A model generated the notes under the pieces. It did no database searches. It saw only the letters and a program-made list of their open reading frames with translations, and was not told the DNA's origin. A stretch of 18,841 bases of DNA, taken from contig JAWBTW010000013.1 in the NCBI GenBank assembly GCA_039000165.1, positions 1-18,841 on the forward strand. Direction: 5' to 3'. How positions within the stretch are numbered: position 1 is the first letter of the stretch; the number at the start of each line of letters is the position of its first letter. The stretch comes from Candidatus Aenigmatarchaeota archaeon. Lineage in GTDB: Archaea; Aenigmatarchaeota; Aenigmatarchaeia; CG10238-14; SCSR01. Shown piece after piece: positions 12,179 through 15,657 of this stretch. Both the position numbers and the translations under genes were made by a program.

Positions 12179-13027
12179 ATGCCTTTGCTTGTCACACCAA
12201 GCCTAAATCCAAAAGATAAAGAAATTATAGTGAATTATTTTAAGGCAAAGCCTCTATCCGAAGCTAACTTTTGGCCATCCAACTTTAAAAGTTATGATGA
12301 TGTTCCGTTAATAGCGAACAACTCATTTAAAGCTAAAGTTAGTGGTTATGAGTTGTTTATTTTAAATGTTGGTTATGGTGAGCAAGGAATAGAGTATGCT
12401 ATAGACGAGTATGAAAGAATTTTAAGAGAGAAAGATAAGCTTGTAGAAATCTACTTTATAGGTTCTTGTTATGCAACAAAACAATCTAAGCTAAAAGTTG
12501 GAGATTTGATAGTTCCCTATAAATCAGAAGTTGGTGGCGAGCATACAAAATTCTACGCTCAAAAATTATTGGAAAGAAATGTGAAAGAACCTACGAAATT
12601 TGATGAGGGACTGATAGAGAGAGTGAAAAGAATTGCAGAAAAACTAAAGCTAGAAATTCATCTTGGTAAAATTTTTTCAGCGCCTATAGATAAAGGTTAT
12701 CCGTGGGATGAATTTCATGAGTTTGGACACGAAAAGGGTTATTTGGCGGCAGAGCTTGAATCAGCTTGCGTGGCTGTTTTGGCAAATTATTTTAAAATTC
12801 CAGCAGTTGCTATTCTCAGAGTTAAAGATACAGGAAAGCCTGACAAGAGTTGGTCAAAAGACAAAAGGTATGAAGGTTCTACTGAGTATAAAGTCCTTTC
12901 AGAAGAAGAAAAGAGAAAAGTTCTCATAAACCAGTTGAGATTGGTTGAGCTTTCAATTAAGGAAGCAAATAATCATTTTCCAATTTTTTTGCACAAAGGT
13001 CCTTCAGGAGTATCTTCGATAGAGTAA
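12179..13027 (+). CDS. Nucleoside phosphorylase family 1 (PNP/UDP) protein, divergent
   Basis: FIGSCYA...LKVGDLIVP, IHLGKIFS, AAELESAC.AVLA...IPAVAIL.V.D. Confidence 0.75.
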   Translation: MPLLVTPSLNPKDKEIIVNYFKAKPLSEANFWPSNFKSYDDVPLIANNSFKAKVSGYELFILNVGYGEQGIEYAIDEYERILREKDKLVEIYFIGSCYATKQSKLKVGDLIVPYKSEVGGEHTKFYAQKLLERNVKEPTKFDEGLIERVKRIAEKLKLEIHLGKIFSAPIDKGYPWDEFHEFGHEKGYLAAELESACVAVLANYFKIPAVAILRVKDTGKPDKSWSKDKRYEGSTEYKVLSEEEKRKVLINQLRLVELSIKEANNHFPIFLHKGPSGVSSIE

Positions 13028-14385
13028 CCTAATTCTTTTATTTTTTCTCTTAGTTCGTCAGCAAGCTTCCAATCTTTTCTTTTTCTTGCCTCTTCTCTTT
13101 CCTTTAGAAGCTTTTGAACTTCTTCTGGTAGCTTTTCTTCTTTTATCGCTTCTTCTAAGTTTAACCCAAGAACTTTGTCAAAACTTAAAATCAAATCTAT
13201 AATTTCTTCAGAGTTCTTCTTTCCGATTTTGTTTTGTGAAATTAACTTGTTAACCTGGTTTACAAACTTAAACATAACAGCCAACGCATCATTTATCCTT
13301 AAGTTGTCATCCATTGCTTCTTCAAACTTTTTTCTAGTTTCTTTTATCATTTTTTTTACTTGCTTGTTTTCTTTCTCTCCTTTTATTTCTTTTAGCTTCC
13401 AAAGAAAGTTGATGAGTTTTTCTACTGTATTTTTTGCTGCCTCTAGCCCTTCAAAAGTGAAGTTGAGTTGTTGTTTATAATGAGTTGAAAGAAGCAAATA
13501 TCTTATTGCTCTTGGGTCATAACCTTTAGCGAGCAAGTCTCGTAAAGTGTAAAAATTTCCTAGCGATTTGGACATTTTTCTTCCTTCAACTATTAAATGT
13601 TCAGCATGTAACCAATAATTCACAAATTTTTTTCCTGTGGCTGCCTCGCTTTGAGCTATTTCATTCTCATGATGTGGAAAGATTAAGTCTACGCCGCCTG
13701 TGTGAATGTCAAAAGTTTCACCCAAATATTTCATAGACATGGCTGAACATTCTATATGCCATCCTGGCCTTCCTTTACCTATTTCAGTTTCAAAGAACAC
13801 TTCTCCATCCTCAGGATCCCAGGCTTTCCATAAAGCAAAATCATAGGCTTCTTCTTTCGTATAGCTGTCTGATTTGACTCTTGCACCAGGTTTTAGCTCT
13901 TTTATTTTAAGCTTAGAAAGTTTACCATAATCCTTAAACTTAGAAATGTCATAGTAAATTGAGCCATCCTCGCCTCTATAAGCGTAGCCTTTTTCTATAA
14001 GAATTTTTATAAGTTCAACAATCTCCTTTATATGTTCAGTTGCCCTTGGATAAACATCTGCAGGTAATAAGTTCAAAGTTTTTGAATCTTCAAAAAATGC
14101 TTTTATGTATTTTTCCGTAAATTCCCTTAAAGAGATTCCCTGTTCTCTTGCTCCTTTAATCGTTTTATCATCAATATCGGTTAAGTTCATCACATGCCTT
14201 ACTTTGAAACCTTTAAAAAGAAGCCATCTTTTCAGAAGGTCTTGCCAAACATAAGTTCTAAAGTTTCCTATATGGGCAAAATCATAAACTGTTGGACCAC
14301 AAGTATACATTCTTACCTCATTCTTTCTTATAGGTTTAAAAACTTCCTTTTTTCTTGTCAAAGTGTTAAAAAGTTTGAGCACCAT
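12973..14385 (-). CDS. cysS: Cysteinyl-tRNA synthetase
   Basis: LFNTLTRKKE, YTCGPTVYD, HIGN, NLTDIDDK, DFALWK, GRPGWHIECSAM, DLIFPHHENE, KMSKSLGN. ATG 14385 preferred; alternative TTG at 14394. Confidence 0.98.
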   Translation of the reverse strand: MVLKLFNTLTRKKEVFKPIRKNEVRMYTCGPTVYDFAHIGNFRTYVWQDLLKRWLLFKGFKVRHVMNLTDIDDKTIKGAREQGISLREFTEKYIKAFFEDSKTLNLLPADVYPRATEHIKEIVELIKILIEKGYAYRGEDGSIYYDISKFKDYGKLSKLKIKELKPGARVKSDSYTKEEAYDFALWKAWDPEDGEVFFETEIGKGRPGWHIECSAMSMKYLGETFDIHTGGVDLIFPHHENEIAQSEAATGKKFVNYWLHAEHLIVEGRKMSKSLGNFYTLRDLLAKGYDPRAIRYLLLSTHYKQQLNFTFEGLEAAKNTVEKLINFLWKLKEIKGEKENKQVKKMIKETRKKFEEAMDDNLRINDALAVMFKFVNQVNKLISQNKIGKKNSEEIIDLILSFDKVLGLNLEEAIKEEKLPEEVQKLLKEREEARKRKDWKLADELREKIKELGYSIEDTPEGPLCKKIGK

Positions 14386-14390
14386 TTTCT

Positions 14391-14727
14391 TCAACTTCCA
14401 ATTTTAAAAGAGCTCGGGGCGGGATTTGAACCCGCATGCGTCGGTCTCAACTTTTCATCTTTTTTCAAAAGACCAACTGCAGCCGACTGCCTAACCGGGT
14501 TCGGCCACCCGAGCTTTTTTACTTCTTCTTTATTTAATAAAAACATTTTTCTTCTTAAATCTCTAAGCATAAACATTTCTTTAACTAGTTTTTGTTTCTT
14601 AAGTTTGGATAAATTATACCTTAAAGTTCTTTCAGGGAGTTTTGTAATTTTTAAAAGTTGCTCTATAGTTTTTGGACTATTAGAAAGAGCTTTTTTAATG
14701 AGTTGAACAGCAAAGGCTATCGCCCAT
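14391..14727 (-). CDS. Small winged-helix-turn-helix (MarR/ArsR-like) regulator; needs a +1 frameshift after codon 5 (programmed, pseudogene or assembly error)
   Basis: The track ORF 14391..14576 extends upstream without stops to TAA 14732..14730, giving FAVQLIKKALSNSPKTIEQLLKITKLPERTLRYNLSKLKKQKLVKEMFMLRDLRRKMFLL, a wHTH pattern (LPERTxRY.L..L....LV......D.R). No in-frame ATG/GTG/TTG precedes the HTH; ATG 14727 is one base out of frame. Confidence 0.7.
14411..14514 (-). tRNA. tRNA-Cys(GCA) with a 31-nt intron at canonical 37/38 (intron ~14446..14476)
   Basis: Acceptor GCTCGGG/CCCGAGC with discriminator U73 (Cys identity element); D stem GCC/GGC; anticodon stem GTCGG/CCGAC; loop CT-GCA-G^A after removing TTGGTCTTTTGAAAAAAGATGAAAAGTTGAG; T arm GCGGG-TTCAAAT-CCCGC. 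Confidence 0.93.
14695..14727 (-). other. 10-codon leader ORF MGDSLCCSTH* with tandem Cys codons
   Basis: ATG GGC GAT AGC CTT TGC TGT TCA ACT CAT TAA; GGTG (14737..14734) lies 6 nt upstream of the ATG. Confidence 0.55.
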
Positions 14728-14788
14728 TCTTAGCACCAAATTAATTTATATAATTCAACTTAAAAAAGTTTTTGATAGAGGCAAATTT
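14728..14788. promoter_or_regulatory. Divergent promoter region between the wHTH/tRNA-Cys/cysS unit and cutA-btuR
   Basis: 61-bp AT-rich gap with TATA-like TTTATATA (+, 14745..14752) and AAAAAC-TTTTTTAAG (-, ~14773..14759). Confidence 0.45.
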
Positions 14789-15097
14789 ATGAGTATCGTT
14801 TTTGTTTATATAACAAACCCGAGCAAGAAACATGCAGAAAAGTTAGCTTTACACTTACTCAAAAAGAGATTAATAGCTTGCGCAAACATTTTTCCAATTA
14901 AAAGCTTTTATTGGTGGCAAGGAAAAATAGAGAAATCGAAAGAATATGTTTTGATAGCAAAAACTATAAAAGAAAATTTTGAGAAAATTAAAGAAGAAGT
15001 TAAAAAGATTCATGAGTATAAACTACCTTTAATAGCAAAGATAGAAGTTGAATCGAACAAGGAATATGAAGATTGGCTAAGAAAAGAAGTGGTATAA
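14789..15097 (+). CDS. cutA: Divalent-cation tolerance protein CutA
   Basis: VYITNPS...LIACANIFPIKSFYWWQGKIE..KE...KT...IHEYKLPLI...Y.DWL. Confidence 0.93.
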   Translation: MSIVFVYITNPSKKHAEKLALHLLKKRLIACANIFPIKSFYWWQGKIEKSKEYVLIAKTIKENFEKIKEEVKKIHEYKLPLIAKIEVESNKEYEDWLRKEVV

Positions 15098-15657
15098 TGG
15101 GTTATATTTACCTTTATACTGGAACAGGGGCAGGAAAAACAACTAACGCTCTAGGATTAGCTTTGCGTTCTGTAGGGCACAAGCATAAAGTTGTTATAAT
15201 TCAGTTTTTGAAATGGTGGAAAAATACAGGAGAATACAAAATAAGAGATAAGCTTAAGCCTTACTATGAGATTTACCAGTTCGGAAGGCCTGGCTGGTTT
15301 AAGCTTGATGGTTCGCCAAAAGTTTACCGTTTTGGAAAGAAGAAGTTTGTTGTTAGGAATTTGACAGATGCAGACAAGCTTTTTGCGAAAAAAGGGTTAG
15401 AATTTGCCAAAAAAATTGTTAAAGAGAAAAAGCCTCACTTGCTTGTTCTAGACGAAATAAATTTAGCCTTGCACTGGAAACTTTTGGATAAAAAAGAAGT
15501 TATAAAGTTTTTAAAGTCTTTGCCGAAAAGAACTGATGTGGTTTTAACAGGAAGGTTTGCCCCAAGAGAACTTTATAAGATTGCGCATTTTGTTAATGTT
15601 ATAAAAGATGTGAAGTTTCCAAAGAAAATACCAACAACAAAAGGAATTCAATATTAA
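15097..15657 (+). CDS. btuR: ATP:cob(I)alamin adenosyltransferase, CobA/BtuR family
   Basis: YLYTGTGAGKTTNALGLALRSVGH, IIQFLK, TGE, LVLDEIN.A, VVLTGRFAP, GIQY; ATG overlaps the cutA stop (TAATG). Confidence 0.88.
   Translation: MGYIYLYTGTGAGKTTNALGLALRSVGHKHKVVIIQFLKWWKNTGEYKIRDKLKPYYEIYQFGRPGWFKLDGSPKVYRFGKKKFVVRNLTDADKLFAKKGLEFAKKIVKEKKPHLLVLDEINLALHWKLLDKKEVIKFLKSLPKRTDVVLTGRFAPRELYKIAHFVNVIKDVKFPKKIPTTKGIQY

Follow-up and report, generated by a model that had tools for sequence, protein, structure and literature searches.

Background

In bacteria, the gene prfB, which encodes release factor 2 (RF2), is controlled by an autoregulatory programmed +1 frameshift at CUU UGA, in which re-pairing takes place on UUU and the UGA is the codon that RF2 itself reads. 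In the yeast element Ty1, the P-site tRNA-Leu on the CUU of CUU AGG C slips by +1 when the A-site tRNA is scarce. Leader-peptide attenuation, as in trpL and pheM-pheST, takes as its signal the speed of the ribosome at codons for the regulated amino acid, and in T-box riboswitches and the thrS operator a tRNA or a tRNA mimic acts in the mRNA leader of an aminoacyl-tRNA synthetase. Here we analyze a stretch of 18,841 nucleotides from a Candidatus Aenigmatarchaeota archaeon (assembly GCA_039000165.1, contig JAWBTW010000013.1, our contig C13; henceforth the window), in which a short leader open reading frame (ORF) with cysteine codons, a small winged helix-turn-helix (wHTH) protein, an intron-containing tRNA-Cys gene and cysS, the gene for cysteinyl-tRNA synthetase (CysRS), follow one another on the minus strand.

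The window holds a compact cysteine-homeostasis operon made up of a putative promoter, a Shine-Dalgarno (SD) sequence, the leader ORF with its Cys codons, the wHTH gene, tRNA-Cys and cysS. From the comparative sequence evidence we lean slightly towards a prfB-like +1 frameshift at a hungry Cys codon of the leader, with ribosomes in the window then being carried through the pre-tRNA to cysS by translational coupling. A sequence-only reading of this DNA had proposed that one RNA might serve either as mRNA or as pre-tRNA; its interpretation is supported by a largely favorable comparison with relatives, far more strongly than a single locus could have done. The conserved layout suggests a cysteine-sensing translational switch of a kind not yet described in archaea.

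Organization of the cysS locus

The assembly is archaeal, 783 kb in size with a GC content of 33%, and the sequence of the window is present in hot-spring metagenome runs. The GC content, the tRNA introns of archaeal type and the small genomes of the phylum sample (0.3-2.0 Mb) suggest a DPANN-like organism. Contigs from a second study match 14588..14800 with zero differences and zero indels, and therefore the arrangement of the leader and wHTH frames is not an assembly error. The elements of the locus are as follows.

14759..14768, minus strand: putative TATA-like box (CTTTTTTAAG), about 36 nt upstream of the leader ATG, in an AT-rich region
14734..14737, minus strand: Shine-Dalgarno core GGTG, 6 nt before the leader ATG
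14695..14727, minus strand: short leader ORF in the 0 frame, ATG GGC GAT AGC CTT TGC TGT TCA ACT CAT TAA (MGDSLCCSTH*)
14710..14715, minus strand: proposed +1 slip site CUU UGC
14391..14714, minus strand: long ORF of the +1 frame, 107 codons and the stop, beginning at the slip site and ending with TGA; it includes the wHTH, tRNA-Cys in full and 17 nt of trailer
14515..14723, minus strand: part encoding the small ArsR-like wHTH protein (Pfam HTH_5)
14411..14514, minus strand: tRNA-Cys (GCA) gene (Rfam and ARAGORN)
14446..14476, minus strand: 31-nt tRNA intron at the canonical 37/38 position (length and position from ARAGORN, exact coordinates read by eye)
14391..14393, minus strand: TGA that terminates the +1 ORF; it overlaps with TTG 14394..14392, and 5 nt separate it from the cysS ATG at 14385
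12973..14385, minus strand: cysS, cysteinyl-tRNA synthetase (Pfam tRNA-synt_1e)

Translation of 14756..14391 on the minus strand revealed a single stop-free stretch running from TAA 14732..14730 to TGA 14393..14391, which encodes the wHTH and then ...KKLGWPNPVRQSAAVGLLKKDEKLRPTHAGSNPAPSSFKIGS*, with the last 40 codons covering the entire pre-tRNA and its trailer. Together with the Rfam and ARAGORN results, this bears out the claims of the sequence-only reading that the wHTH frame is open across the whole intron-containing tRNA-Cys, and that its stop overlaps the TTG at the beginning of cysS, 5 nt before the ATG. The length of the intron modulo 3, which had been put forward as a point of comparison, has no bearing here, since it is the unspliced RNA on which the frame is read. 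The wHTH frame contains no ATG, GTG or TTG from the upstream stop to residue 53. The encoded protein is ArsR-like, with a marginal match to Pfam HTH_5 (E = 5.7e-5, 23.3 bits against a cut-off of 22), and a pairwise dN/dS of 0.30-0.39 among three orthologs devoid of an in-frame start indicates purifying selection. The cysS product is 470 aa long (Pfam tRNA-synt_1e, E = 2.7e-119) and begins at an ATG common to its orthologs (MVLKLFNTLT...).

The Rfam tRNA model (RF00005) matches 14411..14514 on the minus strand with 45.7 bits against a gathering score of 29, and ARAGORN, with introns allowed, calls a tRNA-Cys (gca) with a 31-nt intron. This gene, at 14514..14411 on the minus strand, is the sole tRNA-Cys that ARAGORN detects in the 783-kb assembly. 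By default ARAGORN calls it a tRNA-Phe, an identity that we rejected as a miscall. The predicted fold contains the acceptor and T arms, with z = -3.7 against shuffles. The 5' leader UAAAAA (14515..14522) and the 3' trailer UUUUA (14403..14410) are complementary, and extend the acceptor stem by 5 A-U pairs in the fold. Upstream of the leader ORF, the TATA-like box at 14759..14768 is a possible promoter, which would give a 5' untranslated region of roughly 10 nt. An E-value-threshold Rfam scan of 14200..14900 recovered no T-box or other regulatory family, the only matches being the tRNA and one weak miRNA-like hit.

A conserved leader with an invariant cysteine codon

The frameshift to which the sequence-only reading referred turned out to be a leader shared among relatives; its single invariant Cys codon sits at a slip site resembling that of prfB, and it is tied to cysteine-related genes in distant archaea. 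In relatives it takes the shape of an SD, 6 nt, and ATG GGY GAN NGN YTT TGC, with the long ORF in the +1 frame. Of the 30 cysS loci of relatives that we retrieved for comparison, 18 have the leader upstream of cysS on the same strand. The combined SD and leader pattern occurs once in the genome of the window. A scan of the order with this pattern recovered 38 matches in 35 of 118 genomes, as against 1 in a reversed control, and a phylum sample of genomes between 0.3 and 2.0 Mb yielded 51 matches in 48 of 371 genomes, as against 6 in the control.

We compiled 58 distinct leaders, selected for a 0-frame ORF of no more than 30 codons beginning with ATG or GTG and a +1 ORF of at least 40 codons. 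The 0-frame ORFs are 6-26 codons long and the +1 ORFs at least 40 codons in all 58, the length limits being the selection criteria themselves; the same layout of a short 0 frame and a long +1 frame is independently present in the loci that were anchored on cysS. The leader starts with ATG in 49 cases and GTG in 9, and the gap between the GTG of the SD and the 0-frame start is 6 nt in 39 of the 58 and 5 nt in another 9. As a control free of the start codon, the order was scanned with the leader core alone, which retrieved 20 leader-like regions. Eight of these occur in the context of wHTH, cysK or cysS, and all 8 have a 0-frame ATG or GTG with an SD spaced accordingly; in 5 of the 8 an extra codon is present (ATG NNN GGT GA...) and the start still lies in the 0 frame. 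The remaining 12 regions resemble background.

The codon before the invariant cysteine is CTT in 37 leaders, TTT in 16, GTT in 5 and ATT in none, and it is followed by TGC in all 58. The first base of this slip codon is C in 64% and A in 0 of 58, while at comparable synonymous third positions C accounts for 18% and A for 27%; the bias exceeds what coding in the +1 frame gives. Downstream of the invariant TGC, Cys codons make up 29 of 323 codons of the 0 frame (9.0%) versus 253 of 7667 (3.3%) in the same phase deeper in the ORFs, an enrichment for which Fisher's test gives p = 3e-6 on sequences that are, however, related to one another. Examples of such Cys-rich leaders are MGERFCCACCKCVECKC before the cysK of L029 and MGGRVCLCEGCC in L010. 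At codons 2-5 of the leader, substitution patterns are compatible with both frames and do not discriminate between them. Ten of the 58 leaders, that of the window included, lack any ATG, GTG or TTG in the +1 frame, and yet their +1 ORFs are intact; in the window such codons are missing all the way from the upstream stop (14732..14730) to the slip site. The SD spacing, the invariant Cys codon at position 6 (or 7), the CUU-U string, the base bias and the ten ORFs devoid of a start together argue for initiation in the 0 frame followed by a shift at NUU-UGC.

An open frame across tRNA-Cys and its junction with the next gene

Most of the intron-bearing tRNA-Cys genes escaped a scan of 20 loci at the Rfam gathering threshold, and hence ARAGORN with the -i option and a simple custom finder were used to locate them. 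We found that the +1 ORF crosses a complete tRNA-Cys in 19 distinct sequences from 20 genomes (L001, L008, L009, L023, L025, L026, L027, the second leader of L032, L037, L038, L039, L040, L046, which is identical to L047 and L050, L048, L049, L051, L103, L174 and L198). Between the slip site and the final stop these sequences contain 0 internal stops in 1372 codons of the +1 frame, whereas the other two frames have 230 in 2744 (8.4%). Within the tRNA itself, the +1 frame is the sole open one in 8 of 12 crossing sequences, namely 11 loci with short spacers and the window. Across the loci, the frame occurs in each of the three phases relative to the tRNA, and the tRNAs that are crossed have 0, 1 or 2 introns. 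The tRNA-Cys genes of L008 and L004 have a second insertion in the T-loop region beside the 37/38 intron, and in L008 the +1 frame is open through both. The peptides encoded by the short spacers are dissimilar among loci, which implies that it is the openness of the frame that is conserved and not a protein.

The sequence-only reading had cautioned that some 40 stop-free codons in a tRNA might arise by chance. In this genome alone, 25 of the 129 sense frames of the 43 tRNAs called by ARAGORN are open, and among the 11 calls of at least 100 nt an open sense frame is seen in tRNA-Cys alone; an open frame through tRNA-Cys in a single genome is thus uncommon but possible by chance. The caution was apt for one genome, but the comparison with relatives, with no stop in 1372 codons, indicates that the open frame is under selection and not due to chance.

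The stop of the +1 frame lies between -20 and +11 nt from the next start in the 19 sequences, most commonly in the form 'TGA nnnn ATG', with ATGA, GTGA and TAAATG as the other forms. In 16 of the sequences the ORF is followed by cysS, in L198 by cysK, and in L009 and L039 by an ORF for a membrane protein. The latter two are contigs of one genome (G022), which carry a near-identical leader, tRNA-Cys and membrane-protein ORF of about 160 aa, and there the stop of the read-through ORF is 6 nt before the membrane-protein ORF and not before cysS. The 5-nt gap of the window and the range seen in its relatives fit the arrangement of stop and start in translationally coupled pairs, where ribosomes might re-initiate. 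Even where there is no intervening tRNA, the leader-gated ORF adjoins cysS: in L013 the two overlap by ATGA, and in L030 they are 5 nt apart. In L013, L176, L178 and L030 it is a wHTH or a cystathionine gamma-synthase (CGS) family ORF that ends at the cysS start, either overlapping it as ATGA or leaving a few nt in between, and in L013 a tRNA-Cys is located upstream of the leader. The lack of a GGTGA motif before the cysS ATG, which had been remarked upon earlier, is real in the window but is peculiar to it and its closest relative; GGTG(A), often with the stop inside it, precedes cysS at most read-through loci.

Genes downstream of the leader and phyletic distribution

Beyond the window, the +1 frame encodes small wHTH proteins at many loci. 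In L010 and L029 it encodes a cysteine synthase of the cysKM type (370 and 378 bits, respectively, against a cut-off of 344 for TIGR01136), and further PALP proteins are found in this frame in L012, L069, L130, L172, L175 and L193-L195. The +1 ORF of L030 belongs to the CGS family (NF005871, 530 bits against 513) and ends 5 nt before cysS, and Amidohydrolase_2-like proteins occupy the +1 frame beside cysS in L173 and L190. ORFs for LAGLIDADG endonucleases are joined in frame to the +1 frame of the leader in L003 and L041, and the +1-frame proteins of L043 and L196 have no family match. At further loci the +1 frame is a short non-conserved spacer which continues through tRNA-Cys. Two genomes have two leaders per locus, one before the wHTH and one before cysK (L172, L193).

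The leader is also seen outside the phylum of the window. In a Korarchaeum metagenome-assembled genome (MAG; L109) the 0 frame reads MGDRLC* and the +1 frame encodes a full-length CysRS (tRNA-synt_1e, E = 1.6e-112). The leader pattern is present in 17 of 43 genomes of a Korarchaeota sample, with 0 in the control. When viewed from cysS, one Korarchaeota clade, with cysS at least 63% identical to that of L109, has ATG GGT GAY NNN YTT TGC TGA with CysRS in the +1 frame in 17 of 17 cases; the more distant Korarchaeota cysS genes have conventional starts in 12 of 12, and one further locus is cut by a contig end. The Korarchaeota cysS leaders carry TTTATAAG or CTTTTTAAC about 34-38 nt before the ATG, a geometry like that of the TATA-like box of the window. 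In two Bathyarchaeia MAGs the leader stands ahead of cysteine-synthase-like genes; a class-level scan of Bathyarchaeia was not enriched (17 matches versus 16 in the control), and three of its matches, including L069 and L130, look genuine by sequence. An exact-pattern scan of genome contigs returned at least 120 matches, mostly chance occurrences in bacteria, with the Korarchaeota and Bathyarchaeia cases among the matches listed.

Certain other features were observed at or near these loci. LAGLIDADG homing-endonuclease ORFs lie between the leader and tRNA-Cys in the relatives L002, L003 and L041, and in one metagenome contig (run X5) positions 14520..14712 of the window, comprising the body of the wHTH, are replaced by 744 other letters, which suggests a LAGLIDADG-type insertion in a co-occurring strain. 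Divergent from the leader of the window are the genes for CutA1 (14789..15097, plus strand) and a corrinoid adenosyltransferase of the CobA/CobO/BtuR family (15073..15657, plus strand), which overlap by 25 nt. An archaeal SRP RNA gene occurs within 1.5 kb of cysS in the relatives L017, L021 and L022.

Proposed mechanism and alternative explanations

We propose that ribosomes would initiate at the SD-spaced ATG at 14727, in a frame that ends after 10 codons. When Cys-tRNA(Cys) is plentiful, UGC UGU would be decoded and translation would terminate, leaving the downstream RNA bare, so that the tRNA could fold and be excised by tRNA processing. When Cys-tRNA(Cys) is scarce, the ribosome would pause at UGC and the peptidyl-tRNA-Leu on CUU would slip by +1 onto UUU. 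The shifted ribosome would then read the wHTH and the unspliced pre-tRNA-Cys, unfolding it on the way, up to the TGA 5 nt before the cysS ATG, where re-initiation through translational coupling would yield more CysRS. The logic would be homeostatic, in that an empty A site favors the slip and thereby switches on CysRS, cysteine synthase or a regulator. What we infer from the conserved layout is that a frameshift takes place, that it depends on Cys-tRNA, that cysS translation is coupled to it and that translation competes with tRNA processing. More broadly, it is possible, at a likelihood that we place a little below even, that at least two distant lineages, the DPANN-like small genomes and the Korarchaeota, use a prfB-like +1 frameshift as a sensor of Cys-tRNA(Cys) for CysRS, cysteine synthase or a wHTH, and that in the small genomes a single transcript is split between tRNA maturation and coupled synthesis of CysRS, balancing the tRNA against its synthetase.

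Several observations weigh against this proposal. Where no protein domain lies between leader and tRNA, the frame passes through the tRNA in 16 of 17 cases, the exception among the short-spacer loci being L011, with a stop in the D-loop intron. Where a real protein intervenes it does so in just 3 of 13 (the window, L008 and L174). In L005 and L036 the wHTH ORF terminates 7-8 nt short of the tRNA, and in L018 within the D-loop, while cysK ends before or just inside the tRNA in L010, L012 and L029; L190, L043 and L041 likewise lack read-through, and L035 was scored as having a stop just inside the tRNA, the tRNA call (141 nt) being doubtful. In the closest relative of the window, with a 98% identical cysS, a LAGLIDADG ORF takes the place of the wHTH and a TGA in the D stem ends the frame. 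The expectation from the sequence-only reading of an open frame with a stop near the next start thus holds in the 19 distinct sequences from 20 genomes, but the wHTH orthologs of L005, L036 and L018 show the very outcome that it had named as telling against it. These three indicate that read-through is not obligatory when a real protein is encoded. The open frame is strongly selected where it is the sole link between the leader and the next gene, and optional where a protein is made. Further, the predicted fold of 14545..14350 does not sequester the cysS start region, and coupling may be unnecessary, most read-through cysS genes having an SD of their own. A TATA-like stretch 19-31 nt upstream of tRNA-Cys, placed as in the other tRNA genes of this genome, could be an internal promoter for tRNA-Cys and cysS that is independent of the leader. 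The metagenome runs containing 13900..14800 include no RNA run, the matches being DNA contigs only. Finally, the loci are phylogenetically related, and p-values accordingly overstate significance.

The long ORF might alternatively be reached with no frameshift at all, from an in-frame GTG or a near-cognate codon (ATA at 14720 in the window), with the out-of-frame ATG ORF being a decoy or a competing upstream ORF (uORF); read-through of the tRNA would still be translated and coupled, in the absence of any Cys sensing. An in-frame GTG indeed lies within GGTGA, 4 or 7 nt after the ATG, in 44 of the 58 leaders, a point against the frameshift in that it could launch the long ORF, and L025, L027 and L041 have an ATG at the position equivalent to the ATA. 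The GGTGA, found 4 nt upstream of the slip codon in most leaders, could equally be read as an SD-like stimulator as in prfB, the same letters holding both roles inseparably. The window has GGCGA at this place, and a GTG start is inapplicable to it, its +1 frame having no GTG between the upstream stop and the slip site; neither does a canonical in-frame start account for the ten start-less leaders, whose ORFs are intact and constrained. The SD spacing suits the 0-frame ATG (6 nt), as opposed to 9-13 nt for the GTG or ATA, and the 0-frame start stays in frame despite the insertion of a codon. The invariant TGC, the preference for CTT and the absence of ATT are left unexplained, and a ribosome stalled on a uORF would be expected to block the shared SD in Cys starvation, the wrong direction for cysK and cysS. 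We regard initiation within the +1 frame as unlikely but not negligible.

Another explanation retains the frameshift and assigns it a role in transcription: +1 ribosomes would trail the RNA polymerase and prevent premature termination or polarity, and the stop beside the cysS start would be ordinary operon packing. FttA-type polarity exists in archaea; an ORF that is open up to the next gene fits this view equally, as does the SD that most cysS genes have to themselves. However, inspection by eye found no conserved oligo-T terminator between the leader stop and the tRNA, and the very tight spacing of stop and start, inclusive of ATGA and GTGA overlaps, would have no explanation, and we consider such gating of transcription quite unlikely. 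It is also conceivable that the window is an accident, the stop of the wHTH having been lost, the tRNA being open in that frame by coincidence, and an internal promoter alone serving tRNA-Cys and cysS. The proportion of open sense frames among the tRNA calls of this genome (25 of 129), the wHTH orthologs that end before or inside the tRNA (L005, L036, L018) and the TATA-like stretch upstream of the tRNA are in keeping with this. Against it stand the recurrence of the same design in 19 distinct sequences with no stop in 1372 codons, the frame of L008 that is open across a two-intron tRNA, and the position of the stop in the window, 5 nt before the ATG, which is exactly the common pattern; we find an accident highly improbable.

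Significance and comparison with known systems

If the proposed frameshift is borne out, it would be, as far as the portions of the literature consulted go, the first programmed +1 frameshift known from archaeal cellular genes. In the part available to us, a 2021 review of recoding in archaea lists only the -1 shift of fucA1, viral cases and a suggested shift in Mg-chelatase (PMC8211752). A 2016 survey (PMC5009743) makes no mention of cysteinyl, cysS or UGC in the 300,000 of its 449,034 characters that were covered, and the literature searched contains no description of a frameshift at Cys or in cysS. The leader would constitute a natural switch in which hungry frameshifting at a sense codon senses one aminoacyl-tRNA and controls its own synthetase, and a functional tRNA gene would lie inside a selected, translated frame, the same RNA having to be either mRNA or pre-tRNA. 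Gene callers would mis-start or miss leader-gated genes, as exemplified by the wHTH, which has no callable start, and by CysRS and CysK, which are given GTG starts. The leader, being short, would further make cysteine regulons easy to search for in archaea that have not been cultured.

Like the T-box and thrS systems, the locus places the cognate tRNA, or its likeness, directly upstream of a synthetase gene; it differs from them in that the window has a real and sole tRNA-Cys gene rather than a mimic or a tRNA-binding RNA, and no T-box covariance match within 14200..14900. With attenuators it shares a Cys-enriched short ORF upstream of cysS, cysK, a CGS-family gene or tRNA-Cys, and the closest described Cys-sensing short ORFs appear to be, in the part of that report available to us, the polycysteine leaderless sORFs of mycobacteria (bioRxiv 10.1101/834739). 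The Cys-leader ORF overlaps the regulated ORF out of frame, and its output would be a change of frame and not transcription read-through; no terminator/antiterminator pair was obvious at the leader loci inspected, where no systematic search was made. The +1 slip from CUU at a scarce A-site tRNA is the feature in common with Ty1, and 'hungry' frameshifting of this type is described in the portion of the recoding review that we consulted (PMC8211752). In Ty1 a constitutively rare tRNA sets a fixed ratio of products, whereas the Cys leader is proposed to be a homeostatic sensor of an aminoacyl-tRNA.

A further resemblance is to the autoregulatory +1 frameshift of prfB (abstract of PMC10798248). 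Both have a short 0-frame ORF and a long +1 ORF conserved across species, and a CUU followed by U; most Cys leaders have in addition a GGTGA a few nt upstream of the slip codon that might act as an SD-like stimulator, and in both there would be feedback by the system's own product, RF2 in the one and the Cys-tRNA made by CysRS in the other. The Cys leader differs in that its A-site codon is the sense codon UGC (TGC in 58 of 58) in place of the UGA stop, in its archaeal hosts, in its location at codons 5-6 of the message, in its attachment to several different genes and, in the DPANN-like genomes, in the passage of the +1 frame across a tRNA gene. By analogy, then, the Cys leader appears to work like prfB while not being a member of the prfB family.

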